Below are positions 3,488 to 62,377 of a stretch of 64,000 nt of DNA, piece after piece (position 1 is the first letter of the stretch; each line of letters begins with the position of its first letter). Both the position numbers and the translations under genes were made by a program. The notes beneath the pieces were generated by a model. That model did no database searches. It worked only from the letters and a program-made list of their open reading frames with translations, and was not told where the DNA came from. Origin of the DNA: Roseibacillus persicicus (GTDB lineage Bacteria; Verrucomicrobiota; Verrucomicrobiia; Verrucomicrobiales; Akkermansiaceae). The stretch is from assembly GCF_014651675.1 (NCBI RefSeq), contig NZ_BMXI01000002.1, positions 89,695-153,694 on the forward strand, in the 5' to 3' direction.

Positions 3488-3644
3488 GGGAAGCTGATTT
3501 CAACAAGGTTTGGCCCTCGAGGAAAGCGAGGAGTGTGGCCTGATTTTCGGCACCCTGAGTGCAAGAGGTTCTTTTTTTGTGACTTAAGCCTTTCTTGTCG
3601 TTTCTAAACTCTGCTGTTCTCATACAGATTAAACCTAGAAAACG

Positions 3645-13379: not shown

Positions 13380-13534
13380 CCGGGAACTTGGTATCTGGAT
13401 ATTTGCGTAGTTATTTTTCAGAAGAGTTCATATTTTTTATTAAGTTTTTCGGGGCGAAAATGCTTTTTTAGTAAACGCCTTCTGATTGTTAGAAAGTCCT
13501 TGAATGTCTAACTCAAAAGAGTAAATTTCTTTTT
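13380..13534 (+). promoter_or_regulatory. AT-rich upstream region, likely promoter of the secreted-protein cluster
   Basis: Compositionally a strong AT-rich outlier (ttattaagtttttcggggcgaaaatgcttttttagtaaacg...) immediately 5' of 13535. Confidence 0.3.
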
Positions 13535-14227: not shown

Positions 14228-14264
14228 CGATTGAGGCCGGTTTCTTTCCAACCATCGAACCAGT

Positions 14265-14747
14265 ATGAAGAATACGCTACTATTCCTGCTCGTTCTGCTG
14301 CCACTCGTCGAAGTGGGGGCTGAACCTCAAAAGGCCATTCCCACGTGGAGTGCTTTGGCAACTCGACCCAAGCCCACAGGGATGGACTTTGAAAAGCAAT
14401 TTCGAAATCGCTACAAATATCTCGTCAGCAAAGAATTCTGCACCCGAGTGCCTCGTCAGAGTATTCTCCACCTGCCTGACCAGTATCGGGAGATGGTGGC
14501 GGATGCACCCCAAGGGCGACAAGTGAGTTGGATCGAGTTTCTTTCCGCGAATCGGAGTTGGCTCCGGCATAGCGAAGTGACTTGGTCCCAAGTTCTTGCC
14601 AAGCAGCCCTTGGCAAAAGAGTTGCGTGAGAATTTCGAGAAACACGGGTGCTTGGTGATAGCCACATATCAAGGTGGGCCGGTGACGGTTCTGCCATTCT
14701 TGGACAAGTCGGTTGACTCAAAAGTGATGGAGGTGGCATCCGAATGA
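14265..14747 (+). CDS. hypothetical secreted protein
   Basis: 160 aa with signal peptide MKNTLLFLLVLLPLVEVGAEP. Its stop overlaps the next start (ATGA). Confidence 0.5.
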   Translation: MKNTLLFLLVLLPLVEVGAEPQKAIPTWSALATRPKPTGMDFEKQFRNRYKYLVSKEFCTRVPRQSILHLPDQYREMVADAPQGRQVSWIEFLSANRSWLRHSEVTWSQVLAKQPLAKELRENFEKHGCLVIATYQGGPVTVLPFLDKSVDSKVMEVASE

Positions 14748-15838: not shown

Positions 15839-15890
15839 CCGGTCTTCTTGCTTTCTTTTCCACTGAGGACTCCTCACCCTTTTTGACTTT

Positions 15891-16304
15891 ATGAAAAACC
15901 TATTCGCCCTGATCCTTCTTCTAATCTGTAGTTCATCTCTGGCGGATGCCGCTGATCCCATCTTGGGCCTTTGGAAGAAATCCGATGGTCAGGCCACCAT
16001 CCAAATCACTATTGAGAAAGGGAAACTCGTCGGGCGGGTCACCGCAGCCAAAGACACGACCCGGACTCATGATACCAAGAATCCGGATCCCAAGCTGCGA
16101 AATCGCAAGATCATAGGGCTGCCTGTGGTCTGGGGTTTTTACAAGAAGGATGGCAAGTGGGAGGGTGGTCGAGTTTACGACTCCTCCAATGGAAAGACTT
16201 ATCAGGGTAAGATTTGGTTGGAAGGAAACGACAAGATGATGATGCGCGGCTTCAAAGGAGTTTCCCTGCTTGGTCGTTCGGCAGAGTGGTATCGGGTGAA
16301 GTGA
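15891..16304 (+). CDS. DUF2147-family secreted protein
   Basis: 137 aa. Signal peptide plus ADPILGLWKKSDGQATIQI...GKIWLEGNDKMMMRGF matches the DUF2147 pattern. Confidence 0.65.
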   Translation: MKNLFALILLLICSSSLADAADPILGLWKKSDGQATIQITIEKGKLVGRVTAAKDTTRTHDTKNPDPKLRNRKIIGLPVVWGFYKKDGKWEGGRVYDSSNGKTYQGKIWLEGNDKMMMRGFKGVSLLGRSAEWYRVK

Positions 16305-36800: not shown

Positions 36801-38917
36801 GCTTCAGTCCCTTGGTGCGGGGGGCGGGAGTGGTGCTCTGGGCGGATCGCGATCAAGAAGGACGCTTGGAGATTTCCCGTCTCATCGCTGGTCACGGGCA
36901 ACGGCTGAAGGCCTTCGGCGAAAAGCAGCGCAGTCGCCACGAGCTGGAAGACGCGCTGGCATTGGAACTGAGCGATCAGTTGAGTCGATCGAGATTCGCG
37001 GGGCGGGTCAGTGCCGCGGCGGTGGCGGAGTATCTCTTTGCGCAATTGCGCGAGGGGGATGGCTTCGTGGTTTCCAATGCCGCCTCCGAGGCCATCAAAC
37101 ACTTGCGCAGTGAGCTCACGGCCAAGCGTGCGAGCGATTCCTTCGAAAACGCCATGGCGGAGCTAAGTCGCGCGGAGGCCCGGCATTCTCTCGCCTTGGA
37201 TTGGTTGCGGGGAATTTTGGAAGGGGAAGAGTCTACTGCCGTGCTCATCGAAGCTGCCGCTCACTTGGCTCGGGGAGGGTACGAGCAACGTGAGGTCAAG
37301 CGAGTGGAATTGTCAGTTGAAGTGGCCGGAATGCGCGGATCACACAGCCGAATCGAAGGCGGCGTGCTGCCTATCCAGTTTAACGATTTCCTTGAACGAG
37401 TGGGACGACTGCGTGACGAGACTTTGCCGCTCTACACGCGTTTCCAAGAGCGCAAGAAAGACCTCATCGCGGCCAAGCGCGCGGAGATGAAGCTCGAGGA
37501 GCTGAAGCCCGAAGTGATGAGTGCTTTTGTGCGCAATCGCTTGTTAGACGAAGTCTTTCTCCCGGTCATTGGCGACAATTTGGCGAAGCAAATCGGCACC
37601 GCAGGCGCGGACTCGCGCACCGATCGGATGGGTCTTCTGCTCCTGATTTCTCCTCCGGGTTACGGAAAAACCACCTTGATGGAATACGTGGCCAATCGTC
37701 TGGGGCTCACTTTCGTCAAAGTGAACGGACCTGCCCTGGGCCATCACGTGGTCTCGCTGGACCCTGCGCAAGCGGGTGACATGTCGGCGGGCGAAGAATT
37801 GGAGAAGCTGAACCTGGCGCTCGAGATGGGCGACAACGTGATGCTCTACCTCGACGATATCCAGCACACCAATCCGGAATTTTTGCAGAAGTTCATCAGT
37901 CTTTGTGATGCCCAGCGGAAGATTGAAGGCGTCTATCAGGGCAAGGCCCGCACTTATGACCTGAAGGGGAAAAAGGTCGCGGTGGTGATGGCGGGAAACC
38001 CTTATACCGAGAGTGGTGGCAAGTTTCAGATTCCCGACATGCTCGCCAACCGGGCCGATACCTACAACTTGGGTGACATCCTCGGCAGTCACGAGTCAGC
38101 CTTCAAGGATAGCTACATCGAGAATTGTCTCACCTCTAACAGCACGCTTTCCAAACTGGCGAGCAGCGGTCTGAAGGATGTGCGCGCGGTCATGAAGATG
38201 GCTGCTGGCGCGGAGCTGGAGGAAGTGGACTTCGAGGCCAACTACACCCCGGGCGAGATTGAAGAATTCGTGCGCGGGATGAAGCTGCTCTATCAGGTGC
38301 GCGACACCATTCTGCGGGTCAACATGCAATACATCGCCAGCGCTGCGCAGGAAGATGCCTATCGCACCGAACCGGCCTTCAAGTTGCAGGGTTCCTACCG
38401 AAACATGAACCGCATCGCGGAAAAGGTGGTGCCGTTGATGACCGACGAAGAGCTCCGCGAGCTTGTGGAATCGCACTACGAGAACGAAGCGCAAAACCTC
38501 ACCACGGGAGCGGAGGCGAACTTGCTGAAGTTCCGCGAAATGGAAGGATTGCTCAACGAGGAGGAAGCGGCGCGTTGGGAGCAGATCAAGACCGAGTTCC
38601 GCAAACAGAAGGTTCTCGGAGGAGCCGGGGAGACCGATCCGGTTGCCAGAGTCGTGGCCCAGCTGCAGGAATTTCGCGAAGGGCTCTCGTCCATCGAGCA
38701 AGGGATTGCGATGGCGGGAAGCAATTACGCCAAGCCCCAGACCCTCACCGATGCCACCGTTGCCCAGCTGCGCGAAATCATCGCTGGCTTGCGCGAGGTG
38801 CCGGTGAAAGTCGACATCAACGTCGTGCCCGTGCAAGACGAAGATGGCTCCATCGAACAAATGGAGAAACGACCTTCACCCATCGACATCCAGCCCAACG
38901 TCGAACAAGGCGACTGA
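33869..38917 (+). CDS. giant (1,682 aa) protein: N-terminal beta-rich domain, ~750-aa coiled-coil region, single dynein/MoxR-type (AAA_5-like) AAA+ module near residues 1250-1450, helical C-terminus
   Basis: Walker A LLLISPPGYGKTTL, Walker B VMLYLDD and sensor VVMAGNPYTESGGKFQIPDMLANRADTY, compared with this window's MoxR [24 protein letters not shown]. One uninterrupted ORF. No TM segments. Confidence 0.8.
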   Translation: MPDTEQLEGGSYEVIRARLEKHGEDLRRRLGILNEARKEIFGAVETSLVATERVTTEHNCVPRDLIAVGGNRFLFGYNIQFGLKQTTEIADVFAAYEYDPESHVFHALAVEEVLSDPAFSDDFKYLYKYYKETNFAKFMVIGPNLYMKMRVGKGVDDFKTFKWLRPGDGRLEYIGNRFDHEFQYPPQQEFEWKRAHRDMQRAGMHPHISINDRVFVETVGGDLTIKVEDNTESGEGIYAEPVNDPDQSLDDAEVLYAEVGPLVLLKILPYREELHRYFVFNEKTQEVKRIDAIGHSCVLLPDDQGLIFSNGYLLLTGEVRIFDTALSNMMFERRIPSANGEDTLYVFYNRVSGDYILLSYNLISQSVETPVICNGYSLFPNGELVYFKTEDAAQKHHTLQVWTTPYLSEEALAAQHQDEGSYLFKIGNADLVRGMSECREVLTLLGKDDNYGGLYLDLVKRTGDLVDSYFWLGKEETAELSVPVREINRAAQSALEEFDKVRAQRQSAASRTKEVQEVVETLLAKVRHSPPDDIFGFVHHLSELRTRRGEVIGLREVRYAKTETIDEMEAKLVEAGEATSQKTVEFLLKDEALVPYRKAVTEQGDTIPELSKVTEADAVGAALDKAGDELEMLIDIVGNLKIEDATQTTAIIDGISSIYAELNGVRADLKNKRNDLAKAEGTAQFGAQMKLISQAVVNYLEVCDTPEKCDESLTKLMIQLEELEGRFSEFDDYVEELAGKREEVYEAFEGRKQQLIDSRNKRAGSLLRSAERILAGIERRLESFDSLDEINGYFAGDLMVEKVRGVVDDLKALGDGVKADDLSTRLKTLREDGARQLKDRKELYVDGKNVIRFGKHAFSVNTRELELSVVARDEEMWFHLAGTDYFEKIVDQEFNETRKVWDLEVPSETADLYRGEWLASLLLEGELVGETAAEFLPQVQSFMQARYAEGYVKGVHDEDTAKILEALVPIAKNAGLLRFSPLVRGAGVVLWADRDQEGRLEISRLIAGHGQRLKAFGEKQRSRHELEDALALELSDQLSRSRFAGRVSAAAVAEYLFAQLREGDGFVVSNAASEAIKHLRSELTAKRASDSFENAMAELSRAEARHSLALDWLRGILEGEESTAVLIEAAAHLARGGYEQREVKRVELSVEVAGMRGSHSRIEGGVLPIQFNDFLERVGRLRDETLPLYTRFQERKKDLIAAKRAEMKLEELKPEVMSAFVRNRLLDEVFLPVIGDNLAKQIGTAGADSRTDRMGLLLLISPPGYGKTTLMEYVANRLGLTFVKVNGPALGHHVVSLDPAQAGDMSAGEELEKLNLALEMGDNVMLYLDDIQHTNPEFLQKFISLCDAQRKIEGVYQGKARTYDLKGKKVAVVMAGNPYTESGGKFQIPDMLANRADTYNLGDILGSHESAFKDSYIENCLTSNSTLSKLASSGLKDVRAVMKMAAGAELEEVDFEANYTPGEIEEFVRGMKLLYQVRDTILRVNMQYIASAAQEDAYRTEPAFKLQGSYRNMNRIAEKVVPLMTDEELRELVESHYENEAQNLTTGAEANLLKFREMEGLLNEEEAARWEQIKTEFRKQKVLGGAGETDPVARVVAQLQEFREGLSSIEQGIAMAGSNYAKPQTLTDATVAQLREIIAGLREVPVKVDINVVPVQDEDGSIEQMEKRPSPIDIQPNVEQGD

Positions 38918-38922
38918 GCAAC

Positions 38923-39183
38923 GGAGCAAGGACATTCCTGTCCTTGAGCAGAGCCTCGGTGGTCAGAGCTTGCGTCAGAACTTCGAAATGGGGTGGACGG
39001 TTCGGCGGGGACGGTTCGGTCCAGGGACAGGAATGTCCCTGCTCCGGAGGACGACTAATGGAGCAAGGACATTCCTGTCCTTGAAGCAGAGCCTCGGTAG
39101 TCAGAGCCGGCATCAGAACTTCGGAGTGGGGTGGACGGTTCGGTGTGGACGGTTCGGTCCAGGGACAGGAATGTCCCTGCTCC
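38923..39183 (+). repeat. REP/BIME-like array, two ~123-bp units (REP-A family) upstream of RAYT2
   Basis: Units 38923-39045 and 39060-39183. Each is bounded by inverted copies of the hairpin ggagcaaggacattcctgtccttg / ccagggacaggaatgtccctgctcc. Confidence 0.85.
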
Positions 39184-39216
39184 ATTTCTTGCTTGTCGTT
39201 TAGGGATATAGTTCGT

Positions 39217-39852
39217 ATGAACATTTTTATGTTCTTTCAGCACGGAGAAAAAGTATTCCGGCACGGACGGGATCTTCCGCATTGGCAACAGGTGGGGACA
39301 ATACAGTTCATCACCTTCCGTCTCGCAGACGCGATGCCTCAAAAGAAGTTAACGAATTGGAAAGAGGAGCGTGATTCCTGGTTGGCGTGGAATCCGAAGC
39401 CTTGGAGCGACCGCCAACAGAATGAGCATAGAAGGTTGTTTCACGAGAAGTTGGAGGAGTGGTTGGATGAAGGAGCAGGTTCTTGTCTTCTTGCCGAGAA
39501 ATCGAATCGAGTAATTCTGGCTGATGTTTTGATGAAAGCTCATGGAGATAAGGCCAGCTTTGAGTCCTTTGTGATTATGCCAAATCATGTTCATCTTTTG
39601 GTACAGCCGTTTGTTGAGTTGGAGAAGTTGATCAAAATTTGGAAAGGTGTTTCGGCGCGGAAAATTGGAAAGGGTTCGATTTGGCAAGGGAATTATCGCG
39701 ATACTATGATTCGCGATGCAGAGCATTTTCGAAATACGGTTCGATATATTCGTAAGAACCCGAAGCATTTAAAATCGGAAGAGTTCACTCTCTGGGAAGG
39801 AAAATCCGCGAAGACGATTCCATCGCTGGAGCAAGGACATTCCTGTCTTTGA
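39217..39852 (+). CDS. REP-associated tyrosine transposase (RAYT, IS200-like Y1 family)
   Basis: HUH motif PNHVHLLVQP. C-terminal WQGNYRDTMIRDAEHFRNTVRYIRKNP resembles E. coli RAYT (WQPRFWEHAIRNTKDYRHHVDYIYINP). The last 8 codons and stop lie inside REP unit 3. Confidence 0.8.
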   Translation: MNIFMFFQHGEKVFRHGRDLPHWQQVGTIQFITFRLADAMPQKKLTNWKEERDSWLAWNPKPWSDRQQNEHRRLFHEKLEEWLDEGAGSCLLAEKSNRVILADVLMKAHGDKASFESFVIMPNHVHLLVQPFVELEKLIKIWKGVSARKIGKGSIWQGNYRDTMIRDAEHFRNTVRYIRKNPKHLKSEEFTLWEGKSAKTIPSLEQGHSCL

Positions 39853-40223
39853 GCAGAGCCTCGGTAGTCAGAGCTGGCGTCAGAACTTCGGAGTGGGGTG
39901 GACGGTTCGGTGGGACGGTTCGGTCCAGGGACAGGAATGTCCCTGCTCCGGGGGACGACTAATGGAGCAAGGACATTCCTGTCCTTGAAGCAGAGCCTCG
40001 GTGGTCAGAGCTGGCGTCAGAACTTCGAAATGGGGTGGATGGTTCGGCGGGGACGGTTCGGTCCAGGGACAGGAATGTCCCTGCTCCGGTGGACGACTAG
40101 CGGAGCAAGGACATTCCTGTCCTTGAGCAGAGCCTCGGTAGTCAGAGCTGGCGTCAGAACTTCGGAGTGGGGTGGACGGTTCGGTGGGACGGTTCGGTCC
40201 AGGGACAGGAATGTCCCTGCTCC
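39828..40223 (+). repeat. REP/BIME-like array, three ~123-bp units (REP-A family) downstream of RAYT2
   Basis: Units 39828-39949, 39964-40087 and 40102-40223, in the same orientation as the upstream units, with 12-15 bp spacers. Confidence 0.85.
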
Positions 40224-40265
40224 GTTTGTCTTTCTTTAGAACTGGGAGCGTGATTTTCTTGCGCG

Positions 40266-40976
40266 GTGGCTTTGCTGCTTCTGATTTTCTTTGCGATTGC
40301 GCTTCTTTACTCGTCCGTGGGGTTCGGGGGAGGCTCGTCTTACACGGCGGTCTTGGCTTGGCGCGGGGAGAGTCCAGAGGTGATTCGCCTGGTGTCTCTG
40401 ACTTGCAATCTGGTGGTGGTTTCCATTGGGGGCTGGGCCAGTCTGCGGGCTAAACAAGTGCGAGCCGGATTGCTTGCTCCCTTGCTAGCGACCTCGATTC
40501 CCGGGGTCTGGCTGGGGGCTCAGTGGAAAGTCTCGGACTCCCTCTTCTTTCAAATTCTCGGACTGGCGCTGGCGGTGGCGGGGGGGGTGTTGTTGGTCAA
40601 AGTGCAGGACCGCGAAGAAAAAGCGCTCTCTCTAACAGCCCTTCTTCCTATCGGATTGGCTTTGGGGATCTTGGCCGGAGTCACGGGGATTGGCGGCGGT
40701 ATTTATCTGGTGCCCGTTCTTCATCTTCTTTCGGCTGGAAAGGCGCGCGAGGTGGCGGCGGTGGGGACGTGGTTCATTCTCGTGAATTCCACCGTGGGCT
40801 TGTTGGTTCTGGCACCGACCGCGGATTGGTCTCAGCCCGGCTGGTTGCCAGTGGTGGTGGCTGGGGGCGGCTTGATTGGCGCGCGCATGCTGCAGGGGGT
40901 CTTCGACGAACAGTTGGTTCGTAGGTGGACGGGGGTGCTGATTTTAGTCGTCGCCGGGCGGGTGCTCTTTTTTTAG
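40266..40976 (+). CDS. TauE/SafE (DUF81) family anion exporter
   Basis: Two repeats with G-rich loops (VGFGGGSSY and GIGGGIYLVP). 236 aa, 7-8 TM. Confidence 0.75.
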   Translation: MALLLLIFFAIALLYSSVGFGGGSSYTAVLAWRGESPEVIRLVSLTCNLVVVSIGGWASLRAKQVRAGLLAPLLATSIPGVWLGAQWKVSDSLFFQILGLALAVAGGVLLVKVQDREEKALSLTALLPIGLALGILAGVTGIGGGIYLVPVLHLLSAGKAREVAAVGTWFILVNSTVGLLVLAPTADWSQPGWLPVVVAGGGLIGARMLQGVFDEQLVRRWTGVLILVVAGRVLFF

Positions 40977-41152
40977 AACGCTGCAAATTTGACGAGTTGA
41001 TTGTAGCGCATTTTTCGGTAGGGCTGTTTTGCCAAAACAGCCGCGAATGTTCGGGGAAGGTCCCCAGGCTCACGCCCTTCGTCCGCGAGAGGATCGCGCG
41101 AGGAATTCAGAACTCTCGCGGTCCTTTTATCAAAAGGACCCTACCGGAGTTC

Positions 41153-41225
41153 GCGTCAGAACTTCGGGGTGGGGATGACGATTCGTGGGGACGGTTCGCG
41201 CCAGGGACAGGAATGTCCCTGCTCC
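41153..41225 (+). repeat. REP-A half-unit (3' hairpin half) in convergent gap between TauE gene and argB
   Basis: gcgtcagaacttcggggtggggatgacgattcgtggggacggttcgcgccagggacaggaatgtccctgctcc, ending 5 bp from the argB stop and followed by TTTTTT. Confidence 0.75.
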
Positions 41226-41230
41226 GTTTT

Positions 41231-46834: not shown

Positions 46835-47992
46835 ATGGAAGACTGCAGCCAGCCGCCTCCCGCCGATGCGCATGACGATCCCGACTTCGCTTCGCGCGAG
46901 GGCAACGAGCTGCGTCTTCTCATCAATGGCGACGAAATCTTCCCAGCCATGCTGCAGGCCATTCGGGAGGCGCGGCAGTCTGTCAATCTCGAGACCTTTG
47001 TCTACTGGGCCGGGGAGATTGCGGAGGAGTTTGCGCAAAGTCTGGCCGAGGCCGCCCGCCGGGGAGTCGCGGTGCGGGTAGTGCTCGATTGGTTCGGCTC
47101 GCAGGATATGCGATCGGAGCTCATCGAGACCATGGCCGCCGGTGGGGTGGAGGTCCGGCACTTTCGCCCCCTGCAGTGGTTCAATCTCCGGCGTTCCAAT
47201 CGCCGGACACATCGCAAGCTCCTGGTCGTGGATGGCCGCATCGCCTTCACCGGTGGGGTCGGCATTGCGGAGGAGTGGACGGGCGATGCCCAGGACTCCG
47301 ACCACTTTCGCGACAATCATTACGAGGTGCGCGGACCGGTGGTGGCGGATTTGCAGCAGCTCTTTTTTGCTCATTGGGATGTGGACGACGTGCCCTCTTC
47401 TGATGACGAAGCCTACTATCCCGTGCTCGAGAAAGCCGGTTCCGTGAGCTGTCGGGTCATTGCGGCCGAGCCCGATAAAGATTCCAATGAGATCGAAGAA
47501 CTTTACCTCCAACTGCTGCGGAGTGCCCGGCAACGCTTCTGCGCGGTCGCCCCTTATTTCGCCCCCAGCGACCAATTGTTAGATGAGCTGGCGGCCGCAG
47601 CAGAGCGCGGGGTCGAGGTGCAAGTCATCGCCGCCGGCCGGAACAACGACAAGCGCGTGGTGCGCAAAGCCTTTCGCAACGACTGGGGACCTTTGCTCAA
47701 GGCCGGAGTGCGCATTCACGAATATCACCGCACCTTGATTCATGTGAAAATGCTTCTCGTCGACGACCGCAAAGTCCTTGTCGGGTCCGCCAACTTCGAC
47801 GTCCGGTCTCTGTGCATCAACAGCGAAGCCAGCCTCCTGATCGAGGATAGCGACTGGGCCGAAAAGCACGCTCAAGTCTTCGCCGACGACCTCGCCGACT
47901 GCGAAGAAGCCACCCTCGCCGACTGGGAAAACCGATCCTGGTCCACCAAGGCCAAAGACAAGCTCTCCCACCTGCTGCGCGACTTTCTCTAG
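46835..47992 (+). CDS. cls: phospholipase D-family protein with two HKD motifs (cardiolipin synthase ClsB-like)
   Basis: HKD1 HRKLLVVDGRIAFTGGVGIAEEW and HKD2 IHVKMLLVDDRKVLVGSANFDVRS. Confidence 0.8.
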   Translation: MEDCSQPPPADAHDDPDFASREGNELRLLINGDEIFPAMLQAIREARQSVNLETFVYWAGEIAEEFAQSLAEAARRGVAVRVVLDWFGSQDMRSELIETMAAGGVEVRHFRPLQWFNLRRSNRRTHRKLLVVDGRIAFTGGVGIAEEWTGDAQDSDHFRDNHYEVRGPVVADLQQLFFAHWDVDDVPSSDDEAYYPVLEKAGSVSCRVIAAEPDKDSNEIEELYLQLLRSARQRFCAVAPYFAPSDQLLDELAAAAERGVEVQVIAAGRNNDKRVVRKAFRNDWGPLLKAGVRIHEYHRTLIHVKMLLVDDRKVLVGSANFDVRSLCINSEASLLIEDSDWAEKHAQVFADDLADCEEATLADWENRSWSTKAKDKLSHLLRDFL

Positions 47993-48103
47993 GGAAGGCG
48001 GGTTCGCGCGCTTGGGGTATTTTTCGACGCAGAGCCACAGAGTCCCGGAGATTTCGCTGAGTGTTTGAGTAGTGTGCGGAGAGCGTCGGTAGGGAAGTCT
48101 TTC

Positions 48104-48148
48104 GGAGCGCGGGACTTCAGCCCGCCCCACCGAACCGTCCCGAGTCAA
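48104..48148 (+). repeat. REP-B family repeat, copy 1 (between cls and vsr)
   Basis: ggagcgcgggacttcagcccgccccaccgaaccgtcccgagtcaa, with hairpin core gcggg-acttcag-cccgc. Confidence 0.75.
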
Positions 48149-48274
48149 GACCGCAGAGCGGCCCGCGCCGCCCGATGGGGATAAAGATTCTCACCTCCCC
48201 GTCACTCAGGCAGCGCCAGTGACCCCCAGCGGCCAGTATTTGGTCCTTTCGTTTTTCGTGCTACATTCGCCGCC

Positions 48275-48787
48275 ATGGCCGACCTCTGGGATGCGGAAAA
48301 GCGCAGCTGGGTGATGTCGCGCATTCGGTCGCGCGACACCAAGCCCGAGATTGTGGTGCGCTCGATTCTCCATCGCCTCGGTTACCGCTTCACCATCAAC
48401 GGGCCACTCAACAAGAGCCTCCCCGGAAAGCCCGATATCGTTCTCCCCAAGTGGAAAACCGTGGTCCTCGTGCATGGCTGCTTCTGGCATGCGCATGAGG
48501 GCTGCAAAGACTTCCGCATTCCCAAGACCCGGAGTGAGTGGTGGGCGGAGAAGCTGGCAAAGAACAAAGCCCGAGATGCCAAGGTGAAGCGCCAGCTGCG
48601 CGAAGCCGGTTGGCAGGTCATCACCGTCTGGGCATGCGAGATGAAGACCGTGGAAAAGCTCGCAGCCCTCGTCATCCGCCTCGGCACTGAGATGGCATCT
48701 ACGGAAAAGAAGAGTAGCTATCGCCTCCCCGCCGAAACAGCCACCCGCGTTGCCGAAGAGGTCAAGGGCTACCGAGTGAGCAAATGA
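48275..48787 (+). CDS. vsr: very-short-patch-repair endonuclease Vsr (no adjacent cytosine methyltransferase)
   Basis: 170 aa. PDIVLPKWKTVVLVHGCFWHAHEGC...AGWQVITVWACE matches Vsr (FTHGCFWHHH...GWRVLIVWEC in E. coli). Confidence 0.85.
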   Translation: MADLWDAEKRSWVMSRIRSRDTKPEIVVRSILHRLGYRFTINGPLNKSLPGKPDIVLPKWKTVVLVHGCFWHAHEGCKDFRIPKTRSEWWAEKLAKNKARDAKVKRQLREAGWQVITVWACEMKTVEKLAALVIRLGTEMASTEKKSSYRLPAETATRVAEEVKGYRVSK

Positions 48788-48818
48788 AAACCCTAACTTC
48801 CCAAGCCACCCCCCAACC

Positions 48819-48862
48819 GGAGCGCGGGACTTCAGCCCGCCCCATCGTTCCGTCCCCAGTCA
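48819..48862 (+). repeat. REP-B family repeat, copy 2 (convergent gap vsr / nuclease gene)
   Basis: ggagcgcgggacttcagcccgccccatcgttccgtccccagtcagg. Confidence 0.75.
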
Positions 48863-48874
48863 GGTCGAACAGCT

Positions 48875-49927
48875 CTAGATCCTTCGGAAGGAAATTTCGC
48901 CTTTGCCAAACTTCGCAATCAACTGGCGCATCGTATCTTCGGTGTTTGTGCCCCATTGGTCGCTGAAAGCGTAAGTAACCCCGTTGTGAAAAATAAGGTC
49001 CTCCGGCTTGGTGAACCACCGTCTTGCGTCGAAGGTTTTTCCATCGGGTTGTTGGCTCGCTTCGCTGGCGGCCCGGAGGAAATCCTTTTCGTTCGAGAAC
49101 TCACCCGGCACGGTATAGAACCGGGGTCGACTCATCAGGTCTTGCAGTTCGTCCGGGCTGGACCCTTCTTCCAAGATACAAGAGACAACCTTCAAGATCG
49201 CCCTTCGTTTCACCAAGTTCGAAAACGTTTTCTCACGGTGAGTGACTTCATATTTAAATCTCTCGCGAGAGCTACCCCCGCCGATTTTTTTCTCTAACTT
49301 TTTCTCCCTGATGCGGACCATGTAATCCGCCGCTTCGGGTAAGGGGATGATTTGTTGGATATCAACGAGAACCTCTGCTTCGTTGCGATAGGCTTGCATG
49401 CGCACACAGCTGATATCGAGGCCCTGCTCGTTTAACCAGAGAACGGTAGTCGTGATCTCTTGGTTGAAGTCGGCGGAAACCAGCACGATGCGGGTCTGCT
49501 GTCCAATTTCACCATCAGTTTCGTCAGACCAATCGAGGTGTTGGAGGAGGGTTTTCTCGGCGTCTCCTTCCTTTTGATTCTTATCAAGGTAGTCCTGAAA
49601 GATCTCAACAACACGATCAAAGGTTAGAGCCGAAACCATTGCTGCGTAGCGAACGGCCTGTAGGTCCATATGTCCGCCATCCGTGGTTCTCTTGAGCTCG
49701 ATTACGACCAGATTGCCGGTCTTATCGATACCCAACAGATCGATTCGGCGCCGACTATCTTCCCATTCGGAAAATTCCTCCGCGATAATTAGGGTGTCGG
49801 GCGAAACTGCTTGGATCTGTTCCTTGATGACCTGCTGCAAGTTCTCCCGCTCAAGAATACCGAGCTTCGAAAACGTGGCTTGCGGGAGCGGGGAGAGAGC
49901 GGTTTTAGAAAGTTTATAAATCGGCAT
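48875..49927 (-). CDS. PD-(D/E)xK-superfamily nuclease-like protein (N-terminal nuclease core, C-terminal ~200-aa domain of unknown function)
   Basis: RIDLLGIDKTGNLVVIELKR (D...ExK) followed by QAVRYAAM (QxxxY, RecB/Cas4-like motif). The GC is visibly lower than its surroundings. Confidence 0.6.
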   Translation of the reverse strand: MPIYKLSKTALSPLPQATFSKLGILERENLQQVIKEQIQAVSPDTLIIAEEFSEWEDSRRRIDLLGIDKTGNLVVIELKRTTDGGHMDLQAVRYAAMVSALTFDRVVEIFQDYLDKNQKEGDAEKTLLQHLDWSDETDGEIGQQTRIVLVSADFNQEITTTVLWLNEQGLDISCVRMQAYRNEAEVLVDIQQIIPLPEAADYMVRIREKKLEKKIGGGSSRERFKYEVTHREKTFSNLVKRRAILKVVSCILEEGSSPDELQDLMSRPRFYTVPGEFSNEKDFLRAASEASQQPDGKTFDARRWFTKPEDLIFHNGVTYAFSDQWGTNTEDTMRQLIAKFGKGEISFRRI

Positions 49928-50028
49928 GGATAGATGGGAGAATTAGTATCTGGCCAAAGTCCCTCGGGAAAGGGCGAACTCTGAGAACTGAGTTGCCGTG
50001 GAATCGTGGACCAAGGTTCTATAGGGTC

Positions 50029-50166
50029 GACCTCTGGGATGCGGAAAAGCGCAGTTGGGTGATGTCGCGTATTTTGTTCTTCGGCACCATGCCCGGGATT
50101 GCGTCCCACTTCGTGCGGCTCTCCAACTCTGCCAAGCGGGTTGGCTTTCCCCAATATTCATCATGA
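50029..50166 (+). pseudogene. truncated, diverged 5' fragment of a second vsr copy
   Basis: The first ~90 nt are near-identical to vsr codons 2-16 (DLWDAEKRSWVMSRI), then diverge (LFFGTMPGIASHF vs RSRDTKPEIVVRS). Stop after 45 codons. Confidence 0.6.
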
Positions 50167-50365
50167 GCCTCACAACAAAGAAGAACGTAAACCATTCCCC
50201 ATACGCGACCTCGACTCCACGCGAGGACGCAACACCGTTGGCGTTGGGGAATGCGAGAGGACGAACGACCCGGGGTAGGCCTCGCGCTGCTCCGCCAACC
50301 CCGGGCTGAAAGACGTAAGCCCGTTGGGCTAGAAGAAGAAAACCATCGTGCTGGGGCACCCCAAT

Positions 50366-50410
50366 GGAGCGCGGGACTTCAGCCCGCCCCGTCGTTCCGT
50401 CCCGGTAAAG
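50366..50410 (+). repeat. REP-B family repeat, copy 3
   Basis: ggagcgcgggacttcagcccgccccgtcgttccgtcccggtaaag. Confidence 0.75.
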
Positions 50411-50627
50411 ACCCCAGGGCAACCTGTGCCGCCCAATAAGGATAAAGCTCCTTATCCGAAAGCTCCCCGGCCACCGCCCTCCGAAAAGCTTCCGCCACCA
50501 AACACCGCCACCCACTTGGCCACCCATCTTCGTCGTAATCGGATTCATCGGGATGGAGATCGGGTGCGATGAAAAAGAGACGACCAGCCGTTGAGGAAGA
50601 TAAGTCTTCCCAAATCGAGGAATTAAA

Positions 50628-51122
50628 TTAGCCGTTCCCAAGATGACTCCGAATATTCTCAGCCAGTTGGGCTTCGTCGTAACTTTGAACTACTTTAATA
50701 TGCAGGAGAGAAAGGTCAGCCGCTGCAAAAACTTGATCAACGAACGCGTCTCGTTCGATCCGTTTTTTTCGGTTATGAGATGAATCGTCGAGTTCGATCG
50801 CGAGAGCTGGTTGCATGGACGTGCTTTCGCAGATCACAAAGTCGACGTGCTTCCGGTCAATCCTGTTTCGGGCACCTTTGTTCACATTTGGACGAGGGAC
50901 ATAGAAAAGGTCGGCTAGATTAACTTTGGTGATCAGTGTGAAGCCTTCGGGGATGAGGCGCTTCAGAATATGATAAAAACGAAGTTCACCTGCGGAGAGG
51001 AAGTTATCTTGTTTGGCGTAAGGAAAAAGGTTGGGAGGTTGTGGCTGTTCAAAGGATTTTCCCCAATTTAGGAAGACGCCGAGACAGCCTGCATTGTTAC
51101 TTTTTGAGGGCATGATTCGCAA
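50628..51122 (-). CDS. DUF2726-like nuclease-fold protein
   Basis: 164 aa. LSAGELRFYHILKRLIPEGFTLITKVNLADLF...KHVDFVICE...ALAIELDDSSH resembles the DUF2726 / PD-(D/E)xK-like pattern. Low GC. Confidence 0.55.
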   Translation of the reverse strand: MRIMPSKSNNAGCLGVFLNWGKSFEQPQPPNLFPYAKQDNFLSAGELRFYHILKRLIPEGFTLITKVNLADLFYVPRPNVNKGARNRIDRKHVDFVICESTSMQPALAIELDDSSHNRKKRIERDAFVDQVFAAADLSLLHIKVVQSYDEAQLAENIRSHLGNG

Positions 51123-51134
51123 TCTGCTCAGATT

Positions 51135-51857
51135 CTAGCTAACGAACAAGTTCAGCCGATGCCATTCGAGGGCTTCATAGGAGGGCAGGTTCTTTTCAGG
51201 GAGGGCGAGGGGTTTGCCTACTCTCGAGAGAAAAATAGTTTCGAGTTCTTCATTAGGGAGCTGTTTGGCTATTCGTGATGCAACTAGTAAGCGGTAGTGG
51301 TCATCGAACGAGATAAGACCTCGGTCGAAAGCTGCATCAAAGGTTGCCGAAAGACAAAGTCCGTTTGTAGGTTTGAGACGGAGTTCTTCGGACTGTGACC
51401 ACGGAACGATATGGGATGCTCGCAGCAATTCGGGCAGGGGGTTCCCAGTAATGCAGCAAAGGTACTGATAGGTTTCTAAAACCGTTCGGCGAAAGAAGGA
51501 TTGGTGGCGGCGTGTCTTGGTAAGCGAAAGACCTTCGCTCGGGCCATTGGGTTCCACCGCATCAGGCTCTAACAGTGGCTCGGACTCTTCGGCGAGTGCA
51601 GGGAGGTTGTTCTCGAATTCATCCCAAATCTCACGGTCCAATTTGCTGGCCCCTGAGAGCCCTTTTATGCCACGAGCCTTTTCAATCGGATCTAACGAAG
51701 TGAGATTGTTGAGTTTCATGGAAACCGATCCTGGTGTCCGGCCTAGTTTCTCAGCCAACTTCACAATGGGAGGGTAAGTGCTATGCTGCTTTCCGAAAGG
51801 AGTTCGATGATACAAGTTTAATGCTTGGAGAAGTTCGTTTCGCGTCCAGCGGGCCAT
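51135..51857 (-). CDS. HNH endonuclease-family protein (HNH_2-like, restriction-endonuclease-like) with N-terminal helical/wH domain
   Basis: C-terminal ASHIVPWSQ...NGLCLSATFDAAFDRGLISFDD HNH-type core. 240 aa. Low GC. Confidence 0.6.
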   Translation of the reverse strand: MARWTRNELLQALNLYHRTPFGKQHSTYPPIVKLAEKLGRTPGSVSMKLNNLTSLDPIEKARGIKGLSGASKLDREIWDEFENNLPALAEESEPLLEPDAVEPNGPSEGLSLTKTRRHQSFFRRTVLETYQYLCCITGNPLPELLRASHIVPWSQSEELRLKPTNGLCLSATFDAAFDRGLISFDDHYRLLVASRIAKQLPNEELETIFLSRVGKPLALPEKNLPSYEALEWHRLNLFVS

Positions 51858-51937
51858 AATTATCTTTTAGAAGAGGTCAGGGTGATTGTCGAGATGAAGG
51901 CTTGGTTTGCCTTTAGGCGAAAGGGGTAGGTCGTAGC

Positions 51938-52207
51938 TCAAGATTGTGCATGATATTGCCTTTCGATGAGAGAAAGGATTCGGGCGTAATTGTCGGCAAC
52001 CCATTGCGCTTCTTGGGCGTTGGAGCCTTCTTTCAGGTGGGCGGGGAACTCAGATACTTTTCCGGAATGCCAGTCGGCAGTTTGTTGCCATTCCTCTTGT
52101 CGGCAGGAAAGGCCTTCGATCACTTGCCCGAGGTCGAGTCGGGTGAACTCGATGAGGAATTTTTGGTCTAGAGGATTGTTTGTGCTGGTGTCTTCGATTT
52201 TATCCAC
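51938..52207 (-). CDS. hypothetical small protein (GTG start)
   Basis: 89 aa, co-directional with the HNH and DUF2726 genes. No motif. Confidence 0.35.
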   Translation of the reverse strand: MDKIEDTSTNNPLDQKFLIEFTRLDLGQVIEGLSCRQEEWQQTADWHSGKVSEFPAHLKEGSNAQEAQWVADNYARILSLIERQYHAQS

Positions 52208-52408
52208 GGTCGGAATCTTGTGGGTATCGGGTGGGGTGGTCTACGGACTATAAGTAGCAATTGGTTTGGGAATCCGATGGCATACTGAGCTAGGATTCGC
52301 TCGCGGTAGAGAGGGGCGCGAGGTCGCGACAACTCGCTCGCGTTCTGTAGGCGTTGCGGTGAGGGGCGGAATGACCATGAGGGCAACCTGCGGGAGGTGG
52401 GCGAGAGC

Positions 52409-52587
52409 TTTGGTTTTTGGAGTTTGGTTTTTCTGCGGTTCGCGGGGACGGGTTTGGGCTGCGGGTGGCAGACTCGCGGTGTGGGGAGGACGGGGCTTTG
52501 GGGCGGGTGGGGGCACCCTCGGTCCGTGGTGGGAGGATGCAGTGGTTCGGCTTTGGTTTTTGAGTTTTTGGAGTTTGGTTTTTGGCG
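52409..52587 (+). repeat. direct repeats of tttggtttttggagtttggttttt flanking a G-tract-rich segment, island border upstream of murI
   Basis: The motif occurs at ~52409-52433 and ~52551-52587. Between them runs of GGGG/GGG on the plus strand (gcggggacgggtttgggctgcgggtgg...ggggaggacggggctttggggcgggtggggg). Confidence 0.6.
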
Positions 52588-52666
52588 AAGCGGGAGGGTG
52601 ATTTTTCCGCAGGTTCTGGAAATTTGATTTCCCCAACGGCCTCCCAAGTTCTTATAAGGAGGGCAG

Positions 52667-53464
52667 GTGATTGGTGTTCTTGATTCCGGAGTGGGGGGGC
52701 TTTCCGTGTTGCGGGAAATTCGGGCGCTTTTGCCGGGGGAGGATCTGGTTTATGTGGGGGATTCGGCTTTTTGTCCCTATGGGGCGAAGTCGGGGGAGGT
52801 ATTGCGTGAGCGGGTGGGGGGCATCGTGGAGTTTATGTTAGGCGAGGGGGCGGAGGTGATTGTGATGGCGTGCAATTCGGCGACGATTCAGGCCATCAAG
52901 TGGTGTCGCGAGCGTTGGCCAGAGGTTCCCTTTGTGGGGATGGAACCGGGGGTGAAACCGGCGGTGGAGGCGACGCGCAGTCAGGTGATAGGGGTCTTGG
53001 CGACGGAGGCGAGTCTGACGGGGGAGATGTTTGCGGATTTGGTGGAGCGCTGTTGTCACGGCTGTCAGGTGCTGACGAGTCCTTGCCCGAAGTTCGTGGA
53101 GCTGGTGGAGGCGGGGACGTTGTGCGGGCCGGAGGTGGATGAGGCGATTTGGGAGTATGGTGGACCGCTGGTGATGGGGGGGGCGGATGTGTTGGTGCTG
53201 GGATGCACGCATTATCCTTTCCTAAAGAGCGAAATTGCGCGGATTTTTCCAGAGGTGACTTTGATTGATACGGGGGGAGCGGTGGCGCGTCGGGTGGGGG
53301 AGGTCCTGGGCCGGGGGTCTGAGCCGGAGGCGAGGGAGGGCGCGGTGAGTTTCTACACGAGTGGCAGCGTGGAGGTGATGGAGGGGCTCTTGCCAAAGCT
53401 GCTGCCGAAGGTGCGGGGGCAGATTGCGGGTTTGCCGCTGATGGCGGGTGGGGGGGCGAGGTGA
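52667..53464 (+). CDS. murI: glutamate racemase
   Basis: GVLDSGVGGLSVL...VMACNSAT...VLGCTHYPFL motifs. GTG start. Confidence 0.9.
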   Translation: MIGVLDSGVGGLSVLREIRALLPGEDLVYVGDSAFCPYGAKSGEVLRERVGGIVEFMLGEGAEVIVMACNSATIQAIKWCRERWPEVPFVGMEPGVKPAVEATRSQVIGVLATEASLTGEMFADLVERCCHGCQVLTSPCPKFVELVEAGTLCGPEVDEAIWEYGGPLVMGGADVLVLGCTHYPFLKSEIARIFPEVTLIDTGGAVARRVGEVLGRGSEPEAREGAVSFYTSGSVEVMEGLLPKLLPKVRGQIAGLPLMAGGGAR

Positions 53465-53520
53465 TCTTTCCGCGTTCCGCGGGGTGTTTCGGGGCGATGG
53501 ATGGCTCGCTGAGCCGGTTT

Positions 53521-53781
53521 TCATGGGCTTTTCAGGAGGTAATACACTGCTGCGACTAGTGCGGCGGTGGCCAAACAGGCGGCTACGAGATGCAAATCGC
53601 GGCTATGCCAGAATGAATGGGAGCGCTGAAATTTTTTTCGACTGAGTTTTTCGAGTTTTTTTTGGGTCTCGCGGGACTGAATCTTCCATGAGTGGTAGCC
53701 GGTCGGAACCATGGTCAGTTCATCGGGCTGACGAGTGGTTGATTGTTCTTTGGATGGGATCGAGGTGCTTTTGTTCATCAC
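53521..53781 (-). CDS. small basic protein with C-terminal transmembrane tail (paralog A)
   Basis: 86 aa. The C-terminus RSHSFWHSRDLHLVAACLATAALVAAVYYLLKSP is shared with paralog B. Confidence 0.45.
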   Translation of the reverse strand: MMNKSTSIPSKEQSTTRQPDELTMVPTGYHSWKIQSRETQKKLEKLSRKKFQRSHSFWHSRDLHLVAACLATAALVAAVYYLLKSP

Positions 53782-54116
53782 GCTTTACTATAAAGTTAAA
53801 TATGTCTATTTGGCTATCTAATTCTTGGAGGAGGCCCGCTACCGCAGGGCGTTGAGGGGCGGGGGGAGAGCCTGGTTTCGAGGGGAGCGCGAACTGCAAC
53901 CCCTCACAGATTGGGGCGAGAATTTGGGTGTCCGAGCGAGGGTTCCGCGTGGTCCCGGAGGGGGCAGTTGGCTGGGAAGTCAGGGCGAGAGGAGGTTTTC
54001 GCCAACCTTTATTGGAGCAGTGGGACTGCTCAAGGAGGGGTGCGTTGGCTGGAGCTCCCGCCATTGTGGAATGGGATTCTAACAGTGGTTGTTAGGGGTT
54101 GTGAAGGGGGCGGGGG

Positions 54117-54395
54117 CTAGAGTCCTTTCATGGAATAGTAGACTGCGAGAGCGACTGAAGCGGTGAGGGCGACGGCGAGGATGAGCCGGAGGTCGCGGTT
54201 GTGCCAGAGGGAGTGATTCTTGCGACGTTTCTTGGCGGAAAGAGGGGCGTTCCCGGGTTGGTTCTCGAGTGGTGGAATGGTCTGTTCTTTCCATGAACGG
54301 AATTGAACCGGGCCTTTCGGAGCAGCAGGATTTTTTAACAATCCACGCCGAATTGCGTCCTTGGTCAGGGAGTTGTTATCAGATTGGGAGTCCAT
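54117..54395 (-). CDS. small basic protein with C-terminal transmembrane tail (paralog B)
   Basis: 92 aa. The C-terminus KNHSLWHNRDLRLILAVALTASVALAVYYSMKGL is shared with paralog A. Confidence 0.45.
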   Translation of the reverse strand: MDSQSDNNSLTKDAIRRGLLKNPAAPKGPVQFRSWKEQTIPPLENQPGNAPLSAKKRRKNHSLWHNRDLRLILAVALTASVALAVYYSMKGL

Positions 54396-54585
54396 GCTTG
54401 TTGTTAAGAAAAGTTTATCAACAGGCGGGTCGGAGGGCGATCCTGGAGGGATGAAATGTCACGAAAGAACCTCGAAAAGGGTTGGGTGGGTTCTGGCTGG
54501 ACCCAAACTTCTTAGCAGATAGGGGGTTTGTCTGCTTGACGATAGAGCCAGAGGTGTGCAGCCTGCGCCTCCTTTCACCGTAAGC

Positions 54586-60922: not shown

Positions 60923-62377
60923 ATGAATTCCATTGAAGATTACAACGCCCAAGTCTCCCGCCGTCAGTTTTTCCGCAAGGGCGGGACCGGATTGGGCGTG
61001 GCCGCGCTAGCCTCCATGCTGCCTCGGGAAGCTCTTTCCATTGGGGCTGAACCCGAGTTCGACTTTCGAGCCATCGCGCCCAAAGCCAAGCGGGCAATTT
61101 ACCTTTCCATGGTAGGAGCTCCGGCCCAGATGGAGACTTGGGATCCCAAGCCCCACCTCAGATCCGAGTTTAAGAAAGACCTCACGGGTTATCTCAAGGA
61201 GCAGGGTGAGCGTCTGACGGGGATGACCGCCGGGCAGTCCACCTTTCCACTCGCGCCTTCGGCCTTCGAGTTCGAGAAGATGGGCAAGAGCGGCATCGAT
61301 GTCAGCGAGCTCTTTCCATACACCGGCAAGGTGGTGGACGAGCTTTGCGTGATTCGGTCAATGTATACCGAGGCCATCAACCACGAGCCGGCGAATCAAC
61401 TTTGCTTTACCGGAAATCAGGTGGCGGGGAAGGCTTCGCTGGGGTCTTGGCTGAGCTATGGCTTGGGCAGTAGCAATGAAAACCTGCCATCCTTCGTGGT
61501 CTTGCATGCCAAGCACAGCAACCCGGCGGCCAACGTGCAGGCGATCTCGAATCGTCTGTGGGGCTCCGGCTATCTGCCGGGCAAGTATGCGGGGGTCGAG
61601 TTGCGTTCGGTGGGAGATCCGGTGCTCTATTTGCGCGATGCTCCGGGCATCGATCGGGCGACCCGGCGTCATATGCTCGATGGCCTGGCGAAGCTCAATC
61701 AGGAGTCCCTCCAGTTGGTGGGGGATCCGAATATCCAGACCCGGATTCAACAATATGAAATGGCCTTCCGCATGCAGGCCTCGGTGCCTGAGTTGACCGA
61801 TCTGTCCAGCGAGCCGGAGTCGTCTTTCGAGCTCTATGGCGAGGATAGTCGCAAGGCGGGGACTTTCGCGAGTTCAGCTCTGATGGGGCGTCGGCTCTTG
61901 GAACGCGGAGTGCGCTTTGTGCAGATTTTTCACCGTGGTTGGGATCAGCATGGCAGCTTGCCCCAGCACCTGCCGGATCAGTGCCGGGACGTCGATCAGG
62001 GGTGCTATGCACTCATCACCGACCTGAAGCGTCGGGGAATGCTGGATGATACTCTGGTGATTTGGGGGGGAGAATTCGGCCGCACCATTTACTCGCAAGG
62101 CACTCTCAACGAAAGAACCTACGGCCGGGATCACCACCCCCGCGCATTCTCCATCTGGATGGCGGGCGGTGGAATCAAGGGCGGGATGGTTCACGGAGCG
62201 ACGGACGACTACGGATACAACATCATTGAAAAGCCAGTGCACATCCGTGACTTGCACGCGACCATTCTCCATCAGCTCGGCATCGACCACGAGCGAATGT
62301 CCTACAAGTATCAGGGCCTCGATCAGCGACTCACCGGGGTTGAGCCAGCCAAAGTGGTGAAGGATATTCTGGCGTAG
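60923..62377 (+). CDS. DUF1501 (sulfatase-fold) protein with twin-arginine signal
   Basis: Tat motif SRRQFFRKGGTGLGVAALA. Canonical partner of DUF1553 proteins. Confidence 0.85.
   Translation: MNSIEDYNAQVSRRQFFRKGGTGLGVAALASMLPREALSIGAEPEFDFRAIAPKAKRAIYLSMVGAPAQMETWDPKPHLRSEFKKDLTGYLKEQGERLTGMTAGQSTFPLAPSAFEFEKMGKSGIDVSELFPYTGKVVDELCVIRSMYTEAINHEPANQLCFTGNQVAGKASLGSWLSYGLGSSNENLPSFVVLHAKHSNPAANVQAISNRLWGSGYLPGKYAGVELRSVGDPVLYLRDAPGIDRATRRHMLDGLAKLNQESLQLVGDPNIQTRIQQYEMAFRMQASVPELTDLSSEPESSFELYGEDSRKAGTFASSALMGRRLLERGVRFVQIFHRGWDQHGSLPQHLPDQCRDVDQGCYALITDLKRRGMLDDTLVIWGGEFGRTIYSQGTLNERTYGRDHHPRAFSIWMAGGGIKGGMVHGATDDYGYNIIEKPVHIRDLHATILHQLGIDHERMSYKYQGLDQRLTGVEPAKVVKDILA

Follow-up and report, generated by a model that had tools for sequence, protein, structure and literature searches.

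A mosaic of nuclease genes between a ClsB-like gene and murI in Roseibacillus persicicus includes an HNH family that recurs beside truncated C5-methylase genes and vsr

In Neisseria, the dam replacing gene (drg) encodes a GmeATC-specific endonuclease and is inserted at the dam site (PMC4269198). At another neisserial locus, NgoAXIII, the methylase has been described as a remnant of 112 amino acids (aa) in Neisseria gonorrhoeae FA1090 and 133 aa in other strains, versus 362 aa in Neisseria lactamica; the same account relates that an earlier study found the FA1090 methylase inactive, regards V.NgoAXIII as probably still functional, and names N. lactamica Y92-1009 and Neisseria polysaccharea M18661 in tracing the relatives of the NgoAXIII region (PMC6789123). 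Neisseria meningitidis is reported to have the NmeDI system at the NgoAXIII site (PMC6789123, PMC7973814, PMC2095814). Here we analyze a 64-kb stretch of DNA from Roseibacillus persicicus (the window), in which several nuclease genes lie between a ClsB-like phospholipase D (PLD) gene and murI. With moderate confidence, we read this interval as nuclease genes assembled into a small mosaic, which most likely acts against foreign DNA and comprises an HNH operon linked to 5-methylcytosine (m5C), an orphaned vsr gene, and the separate nuclease gene PDC-S11. The scans for methylase genes and for the repeat REP-B that are described below covered the window.

The operon orf89-HNH-DUF2726 consists of three genes on the minus strand (52207-50628). 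The first, orf89 (51938-52207), encodes an 89-aa protein for which no Pfam family and no match or solved structure in the PDB were found. The second (51135-51857) encodes an HNH_2 nuclease (PF13391, E 1e-12; 48 bits versus a cutoff of 21) with an N-terminal helical module. The last (50628-51113) encodes a DUF2726 protein of the restriction endonuclease fold, which matches PF10881 (E 2e-27; 96 bits versus a cutoff of 24.7) over profile positions 4-123 of 126. The DUF2726 gene begins 21 nt past the HNH stop codon, and the annotation places its start at the ATG of position 51113.

The small gene orf89, which a first-pass annotation of this DNA had mentioned only in passing as an ORF, is a real gene and a conserved partner of HNH. 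Homologs of orf89 (44-61% identity) immediately precede HNH and share its orientation in the comparison loci L004, L006, L007, L008-10, and L011, and the orf89-HNH pair is kept in at least six Roseibacillus contexts whose neighbors are otherwise different. When an orf89 profile was used, orf89-like ORFs were also detected beside distant HNH homologs in L012-14, L076, L078, and L095. The family comprises 78 cluster representatives among 1.84 billion proteins; a word-indexed search returned the query itself and nothing else. One context of a distant relative, a 649-nt contig, has an unrelated neighbor. In L007, the full copy is immediately preceded by a partial duplicate of orf89 (9352-9531), which spans the first ~55 codons and has 64% aa identity to orf89.

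The HNH protein itself has a modular structure. In an AlphaFold (AF2) model with a predicted local distance difference test (pLDDT) score of 91.8, residues 1-100 are all helical and the HNH domain is C-terminal. The nearest solved relatives are VcaM4I (6yex; phmmer, 2e-12) and TagI (6ghs), with a Foldseek probability of 1.0, and the similarity is confined to the HNH domain. The NCBIfam model PT-DNA_restrict matches the C-terminal part of the protein, below its cutoff. The helical module is homologous to the N terminus of an AAA ATPase that adjoins the orf88-HNH pair in Roseibacillus ishigakijimensis (L006; BLASTP, 8e-11) and to a 78-aa ORF that stands by itself next to an AAA ATPase gene in L005 (hhalign, 97%), and one member of the HNH family (L085) consists of an EVE domain, the helical module, and HNH_2. 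Such an organization is characteristic of restriction nucleases in which an exchangeable targeting domain is joined to the nuclease. A PADLOC scan for defense genes, as proposed in the first-pass annotation, returned model PDLC04132 (HNH) for this protein (E 7e-78), along with PDLC03546, "Type II restriction enzyme" (8e-34), and PDC-S11 for the 350-aa nuclease discussed below.

We next consider the company that the HNH family keeps outside Roseibacillus. A metagenome scan with the HNH alignment gave more than 587 matches, from which 80 loci were kept; the neighboring ORFs were clustered, compared by tblastn with full-length methylases, and checked against Pfam. Similarity to C5-methylases was found in 21 of the 80 HNH loci and Vsr in 11, with one or both present in 30. 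In the control, 42 PDC-S11 loci from viral contigs, C5-methylase and Vsr genes were present in four, all belonging to one related group (Fisher p = 0.0012). In 11 of the 21 methylase loci, the methylase gene is reduced to its 5' portion: the match to the DNA_methylase profile stops at positions 43-197 of 324, and the remaining stump runs up to the HNH cassette. Of these stumps, eight are codirectional with HNH and three are convergent, and 10 of the 11 loci represent separate lineages at 80% HNH identity. L030 has a whole methylase and L026 and L034 a deleted one, with HNH proteins that are at least 80% identical. Forty residues invariant in the HNH family are kept equally well beside whole and truncated methylases.

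Two further arrangements on the same HNH family were observed. L044, L088, and L092 have a distinct four-gene architecture, an operon of a C5-methylase, a GHKL (HATPase_c_3) ATPase of ~800 aa, a protein of ~430 aa (299 aa in L088), and the HNH homolog. L076 has an EcoRII-like restriction gene and vsr (1556-2596), which come after the stump of a methylase gene, the HNH homolog, and an orf89-like gene; that the restriction gene is whole when the methylase next to it is truncated was unexpected.

N. gonorrhoeae provides an instance in a described system. The gene order there is pheS, Vsr, a 133-aa methylase stump (profile positions 1-67), the 113-aa orf113, an HNH homolog, and pheT, and the HNH homolog is full length and 41% identical to that of the window. 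The passages of PMC6789123 drawn on here contain no mention of this HNH gene. R.NmeDI was considered as a possible HNH homolog and rejected, as it is a different protein of 351 aa.

Taken with the solved relatives, these observations lead us to propose the following for the operon. The HNH protein would combine an N-terminal helical DNA-targeting module with an HNH_2 nuclease of the modification-dependent kind. It would cut incoming DNA that carries cytosine modification, or otherwise antagonize a particular C5-methylase, and would need no cognate methylase for the safety of the host. The orf89 product would regulate or restrain HNH, and the DUF2726 protein would be a restriction-fold nuclease with an accessory role, gained by the operon in this lineage. 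A bolder form of this proposal, which we hold to be doubtful, is that orf89-HNH is a "dcm-replacing" cassette that acts against the product of a particular C5-methylase and settles at methylase-Vsr loci, deleting the methylase. If so, an orphan Vsr would be left behind, reacquisition of the methylase would be lethal, and orf89 would encode a regulator or inhibitor. The cassette would then be an m5C counterpart of drg and an example of recurrent, cross-phylum conflict between methyl-directed nucleases and methyltransferases.

The same truncations raise the possibility of a selfish, homing-like HNH cassette that would cleave C5-methylase/Vsr loci and spread as repair of the break copies it into them, destroying the methylase. 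Methylase stumps that end at the cassette in both orientations would fit this explanation, as would the many contexts in which the cassette occurs within one genus. So would the divergence of HNH: its synonymous sites are saturated (proportion of synonymous differences, 0.74), whereas murI next to it gives 0.45 between the same two genomes. This indicates that the HNH alleles are much older than the surrounding genomes and points to replacement by transfer. However, the truncation points vary from profile position 43 to 197, which argues against a single homing site, no methylase remnant was detected beside the cassette in Roseibacillus, and the cassette has no intron, intein, or repeat boundary. 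In addition, the ratio of nonsynonymous to synonymous substitution rates (dN/dS) of HNH versus L007 is ~0.03, and such strong purifying selection suggests a function useful to the host. We therefore consider a homing-like origin improbable and less supported than our own reading.

The second module is vsr (48275-48787, plus strand), an intact gene for a T:G mismatch endonuclease (TIGR00632, 130 bits versus a cutoff of 97.85). The protein aligns with 1cw0 (E 2e-28), including the catalytic Asp (the D of PGKPD) and the HGCFWH cluster, and is 97% identical in aa sequence to its counterpart in strain L004. The first-pass annotation had noted that vsr lacks a methyltransferase in its vicinity, and this holds for the whole window: neither C5 motif IV nor N6 motif IV is present in any window ORF of at least 150 aa, and tblastn with 17 C5-methylases gave no match in the 64 kb. 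A hidden C5-methylase pseudogene in the spacers of the interval was also looked for, and none was found by tblastn at E values up to 5. The recognition palindromes offered no further clue to m5C, as no m5C-type site is prominent among those avoided in the 64 kb. Across the window, GTAC (observed/expected, 0.25; z, -9) and GATC (0.61; z, -12) are strongly underrepresented, which suggests long-term restriction pressure from systems encoded outside the window.

The absence of dcm beside vsr is best explained as what remains once an m5C module has lost its methylase, and vsr would then be the repair gene that outlived an m5C methylase/Vsr module. Alternatively, the methylase is encoded elsewhere in the genome, and the data are compatible with both. 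The first-pass annotation had instead seen in vsr and the nuclease genes a pattern of modification-dependent, type IV-like restriction or abortive infection. The nearest relatives of HNH are indeed modification-dependent enzymes; a reader domain is absent, and vsr is more likely a leftover of an m5C module than a generic type IV signature, because the HNH family recurs beside C5-methylases and Vsr. Since the N-terminal domain of HNH is helical and is not a known modified-base reader, its type IV status is a prediction.

Several observations weigh against our reading, some of them in favor of the main rival explanation, a classical restriction-modification (R-M) system with split genes, in which HNH would be a type II enzyme that cuts unmethylated sites, the methylase would be encoded elsewhere, and Vsr would repair deamination damage. 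No reader domain (EVE, SRA, PUA, or sulfur-binding) was matched by the N-terminal 100 residues of HNH, and the type II HNH and REase_II models of PADLOC match the C-terminal half of the protein. Full-length C5-methylases are found near HNH in eight or nine of the 80 loci, including the methylase-ATPase-x-HNH operons, and these loci fit an ordinary restriction enzyme. The vsr gene is intact, host-like in composition, and conserved between strains, which implies the presence of m5C in this genome and suggests a C5-methylase elsewhere in it, the methylase search having covered the 64-kb window. Cytosine is reported to be methylated at many motifs in N. gonorrhoeae (PMC6789123); a general m5C-dependent nuclease would be lethal in the presence of such abundant m5C, so that the gonococcal homolog should be context specific, silent, or not dependent on m5C. 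DUF2726 and PDC-S11 are linked to HNH within this genus alone, as neither was found in any of the 80 distant HNH loci. Finally, cleavage of modified DNA by HNH and protection from phages by PDC-S11 are predictions from sequence.

On the other hand, in 10 independent lineages the neighboring methylase is truncated and HNH is intact. In gonococci, the adjoining methylase is a remnant, described as inactive in FA1090 (PMC6789123), and the HNH ORF is whole. No methylase is present within 10 kb of HNH in the six Roseibacillus contexts or in the 64-kb window, and the nearest solved relatives of HNH depend on modification. On balance, we regard a split classical R-M system as unlikely, and we retain the m5C-linked, modification-dependent reading for the operon.

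The third module is PDC-S11 (48875-49927, minus strand), which encodes a 350-aa NucS/Shedu-like PD-(D/E)xK nuclease. PADLOC model PDLC04909 matches the protein over residues 1-347 (E 3e-129), the match to NucS_C is weak, and D63, E77, and K79 are invariant among 40 homologs. In the AF2 model (pLDDT, 85.9), the N-terminal domain is similar to EndoMS/NucS, Card1, SduA, and HamA by Foldseek; the C-terminal domain is confidently modeled, and Foldseek matched it to no solved structure. Homologs number in the thousands and occur across phyla, with neighborhoods that include type I R-M, Mrr, and NERD genes (Haloferula) or Fic and NERD genes (Sedimenticola). PDC-S11 is most simply seen as an independent single-gene nuclease that would have arrived in a 1.5-kb segment bracketed by copies of REP-B.

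Two other arrangements of PDC-S11 homologs were noted. In L097 (8126-8821), L099 (9164-9940), and L005 (5806-6324), a small NERD/DUF2726 nuclease gene lies one to two genes after the PDC-S11 homolog, and this may be a recurrent pairing in three unrelated taxa (n = 3). In L136, L140, L142, and L143, which belong to one viral or proviral group in IMG/VR, PDC-S11 is head-to-head with a whole vsr beside a whole C5-methylase, an arrangement that echoes the layout of PDC-S11 and the vsr fragment in the window.

The bracketed segment begins at the second copy of REP-B (48818-48862) and ends at the third (50365-50409); the two copies are in direct orientation, start to start 1,547 nt apart, with PDC-S11 and a fragment of vsr between them. 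The first copy (48103-48147) precedes vsr, and its similarity to the third continues to ~48200. Three copies, as the first-pass annotation had it, all on the plus strand, account for the family, with none elsewhere in the 64 kb and none in 100 shuffled sequences. The vsr fragment (50025-50101, plus strand) is 84% identical to 48277-48353 (codons 2-27 of vsr), is head-to-head with PDC-S11, and has sharp borders, without similarity past codon 27; it is also found in strain L004. The first-pass annotation had recognized this second vsr remnant and placed it at 50029-50166, longer than the 77 nt over which it can be aligned. In a simple account, recombination at REP-B would have inserted a segment with PDC-S11 and part of a neighboring vsr.

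The nature of REP-B was considered further. An identity as integron attC sites was rejected: the repeat forms only a 5-bp stem with a 7-nt loop, the folding z scores of -1.65 to +0.66 are not significant on either strand, the gene orientations are mixed, and no integrase is among the genes called in the ~25 kb annotated around the interval. With respect to a REP/RAYT element, the copy number and position of REP-B differ between the two strains, with one copy inverted (64 kb scanned). Elsewhere in the window, a Y1-transposase-like gene (39145-39852; Pfam Y1_Tnp, a faint match) lies among copies of another repeat family of 80-130 nt (38900-41230). Since this gene is absent from the otherwise collinear L004, it appears to be a strain-specific, REP/RAYT-like insertion. 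Directly upstream of this region is an ORF of 1,682 aa (33869-38917) with matches to DUF3686 and DUF7902 and weak matches to AAA.

The interval is not a single insertion but a mosaic in which each of the three modules has its own history. This follows from the layout of L007, the gene order of L005, and the host-like composition of vsr. In L007, a Roseibacillus metagenome-assembled genome, MFS-KARI-PhoX-murI is followed by orf89-HNH, and vsr, PDC-S11, DUF2726, and cls are missing from that place. In L005, a metagenomic contig with 70-79% nucleotide identity to the window, the order is vsr, a ParE-like gene, DUF2726, PDC-S11, and HNH, so that PDC-S11 lies between HNH and DUF2726, and the sequence shared for PDC-S11 is the coding sequence only. 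The DUF2726 gene is intact in L005, and the spacer downstream of DUF2726 in the window (50424-50513) is 89% identical to L005 6351-6437. L005 also has an AAA ATPase (AAA_22/AAA_5) with a 659-aa neighbor, the free-standing HNH N-terminal module, and a ParE-like toxin (1-3500 and 6586-6840). R. ishigakijimensis and L011 have orf89-HNH in further contexts, and in L011 a 5' remnant of DUF2726 follows HNH. A test for an empty site in R. ishigakijimensis was uninformative, as the neighbors of cls are entirely different there through rearrangement.

Base composition agrees with this history. The G+C content of ~49100-52100 is 0.46-0.52, compared with 0.56-0.63 in the flanks, and that of 48875-52207 is 0.515, the level of the lowest 3.3-kb stretch of the window. 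G+C at third codon positions (GC3) is 0.61 for PDC-S11, 0.52 for HNH, 0.53 for orf89, and 0.47 for DUF2726, compared with 0.65-0.77 for host genes. The GC3 of vsr is 0.77, so that vsr is host-like in composition and not AT-rich. Every ORF of the first-pass annotation is present at its coordinates, and its nuclease fold assignments agree with the Pfam, NCBIfam, PADLOC, and structure matches. Its single, AT-richer defense island between core genes fared differently: the low G+C of the nuclease, DUF2726, and HNH genes is borne out by windowed G+C and GC3, and the interval does vary between relatives, but vsr does not share the composition, and L007 and L005 break up the unity of the island. Likewise, PDC-S11 is a recognized phage defense candidate, as a defense island would have it, but no evidence joins the three nucleases into one system.

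The two R. persicicus strains show how labile the spacers are. Strain L004 (GCA_031127915.1) has the same genes with 97.5% identity and different spacers: the identity breaks within the first copy of REP-B, and the 160 nt up to the start of vsr are replaced. The spacer between orf89 and murI is ~700 nt longer in L004 and includes an inverted REP-B copy. The G/T-rich segment upstream of murI in the window (52409-52597, plus strand) contains 20-nt repeats at 52413, 52542, and 52564; it is one degenerate unit of a minisatellite of ~109 nt, which is present as approximately five tandem units in L004. The first-pass annotation had correctly seen direct repeats here and had taken them for a border of the island rather than for a unit of variable copy number.

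This lability could suggest that the interval is a graveyard, a recombination-prone spacer filled with decayed remnants of R-M systems and mobile elements that have no function beyond repair by Vsr. The vsr fragment, the REP-B copies that differ between the strains, the expanding and contracting minisatellite, and the replaced spacer segments all fit this explanation. In L005, moreover, HNH and vsr are frameshifted, in a contig with a coverage of 4.4x. However, all five ORFs are intact in both strains, the catalytic residues are conserved in the nucleases of the interval, and dN/dS is 0.03-0.11 across HNH, orf89, and DUF2726. Plain decay is less supported than a set of nuclease genes kept against foreign DNA and is highly improbable.

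The left border of the interval is the ClsB-like PLD/cardiolipin synthase gene (46835-47992, plus strand; PLDc_2, 1e-41), which scores 281 bits with TIGR04265, slightly below the cutoff, and is 79% identical in aa sequence to an R. ishigakijimensis gene with different neighbors. The right border is murI (52667-53464, plus strand), which encodes glutamate racemase (TIGR00067, 189 bits, above the cutoff). GC skew on the plus strand is strongly positive (0.25-0.46) over 50750-54500 irrespective of gene direction, as HNH, DUF2726, and orf89 are on the minus strand and murI is on the plus strand; in the rest of the window it is mostly between -0.1 and +0.2. A second low-G+C stretch (13000-16300; 0.49-0.52) is as low as the nuclease interval. 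No Rfam match was found in the window, and scans for promoters and terminators gave no excess over chance. A tRNA integration site was considered and rejected: the sole tRNA call of ARAGORN (61031-61117, minus strand) has a four-base anticodon, lies within the coding region of a DUF1501 gene, and is probably a false positive.

All protein families of the interval other than orf89 are already cataloged, and the reading as a defense island is a conventional one. What is new is the conserved orf89 partner, the recurrence of the HNH family beside Vsr and C5-methylases that have been truncated, the presence of an HNH gene next to the NgoAXIII remnant of gonococci, and the relocation of PDC-S11 between REP-B copies, seen at the nucleotide level. 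Orphan vsr genes and methylase stumps are usually dismissed as decay. If the HNH family systematically sits at truncated C5-methylases, this would be a sign that methyl-directed nucleases and methyltransferases are in active conflict and that this conflict shapes the epigenomes of bacteria, and the operon would provide a candidate for a new m5C-linked restriction enzyme with an uncharacterized small partner protein. The locus also shows a candidate defense gene, PDC-S11, moving between positions, with short repeats at the borders.

Our results allow the interval to be placed among known systems. The HNH protein shares the HNH_2-type nuclease domain of the modification-dependent enzymes VcaM4I (EVE-HNH, 6yex), TagI (SRA-HNH, 6ghs), and ScoMcrA; its catalytic domain matches those of VcaM4I and TagI, no cognate methylase is encoded in the window, and in its relative L085 an EVE domain stands ahead of the same helical module and HNH. 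It differs from these enzymes in that no modified-base reader (PUA, SRA, or EVE) is fused to the nuclease, the N-terminal 100 residues being helical. To our knowledge, no 89-aa partner gene is known for VcaM4I or TagI. The HNH models of the PADLOC category "RM type HNH," to which PDLC04132 presumably belongs, match the protein as well, and some homologs are beside whole C5-methylases, but the defining methylase is absent from the window and from the six Roseibacillus HNH contexts and is truncated in many homologous loci. The name "RM type HNH" occurs in 10.1101/2025.11.08.687337. PDC-S11 agrees with the PADLOC candidate of that name in its full-length model match, its invariant D...ExK, and homologs that lie among restriction and toxin genes. 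It differs in its setting, which in the window is a segment bracketed by REP-B that also holds the fragment of vsr; a related species has the gene between HNH and DUF2726.

When the window Vsr is compared with the dcm-vsr pair of Escherichia coli, it is clearly a match of the ortholog type, and its catalytic residues align with those of 1cw0, but no overlapping or adjoining dcm is present, nor is any C5 cytosine methyltransferase gene linked to vsr within the 64 kb, and the second copy of vsr is reduced to a 5' fragment. NgoAXIII brings together Vsr, a C5-methylase cut to 112-133 aa, and, right behind them, an HNH gene that is homologous to that of the window and full length. It differs in that Roseibacillus has no methylase remnant and orf113 is unrelated to orf89. 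In the case of drg, the modification is N6-methyladenine set by Dam, the nuclease belongs to another family, and the methyl dependence of the HNH family is, by comparison, a prediction. Nevertheless, as described in PMC4269198, drg offers a precedent in which the gene of a methyl-directed nuclease, lower in GC content, occupies the locus of the very methylase whose product the nuclease cuts.

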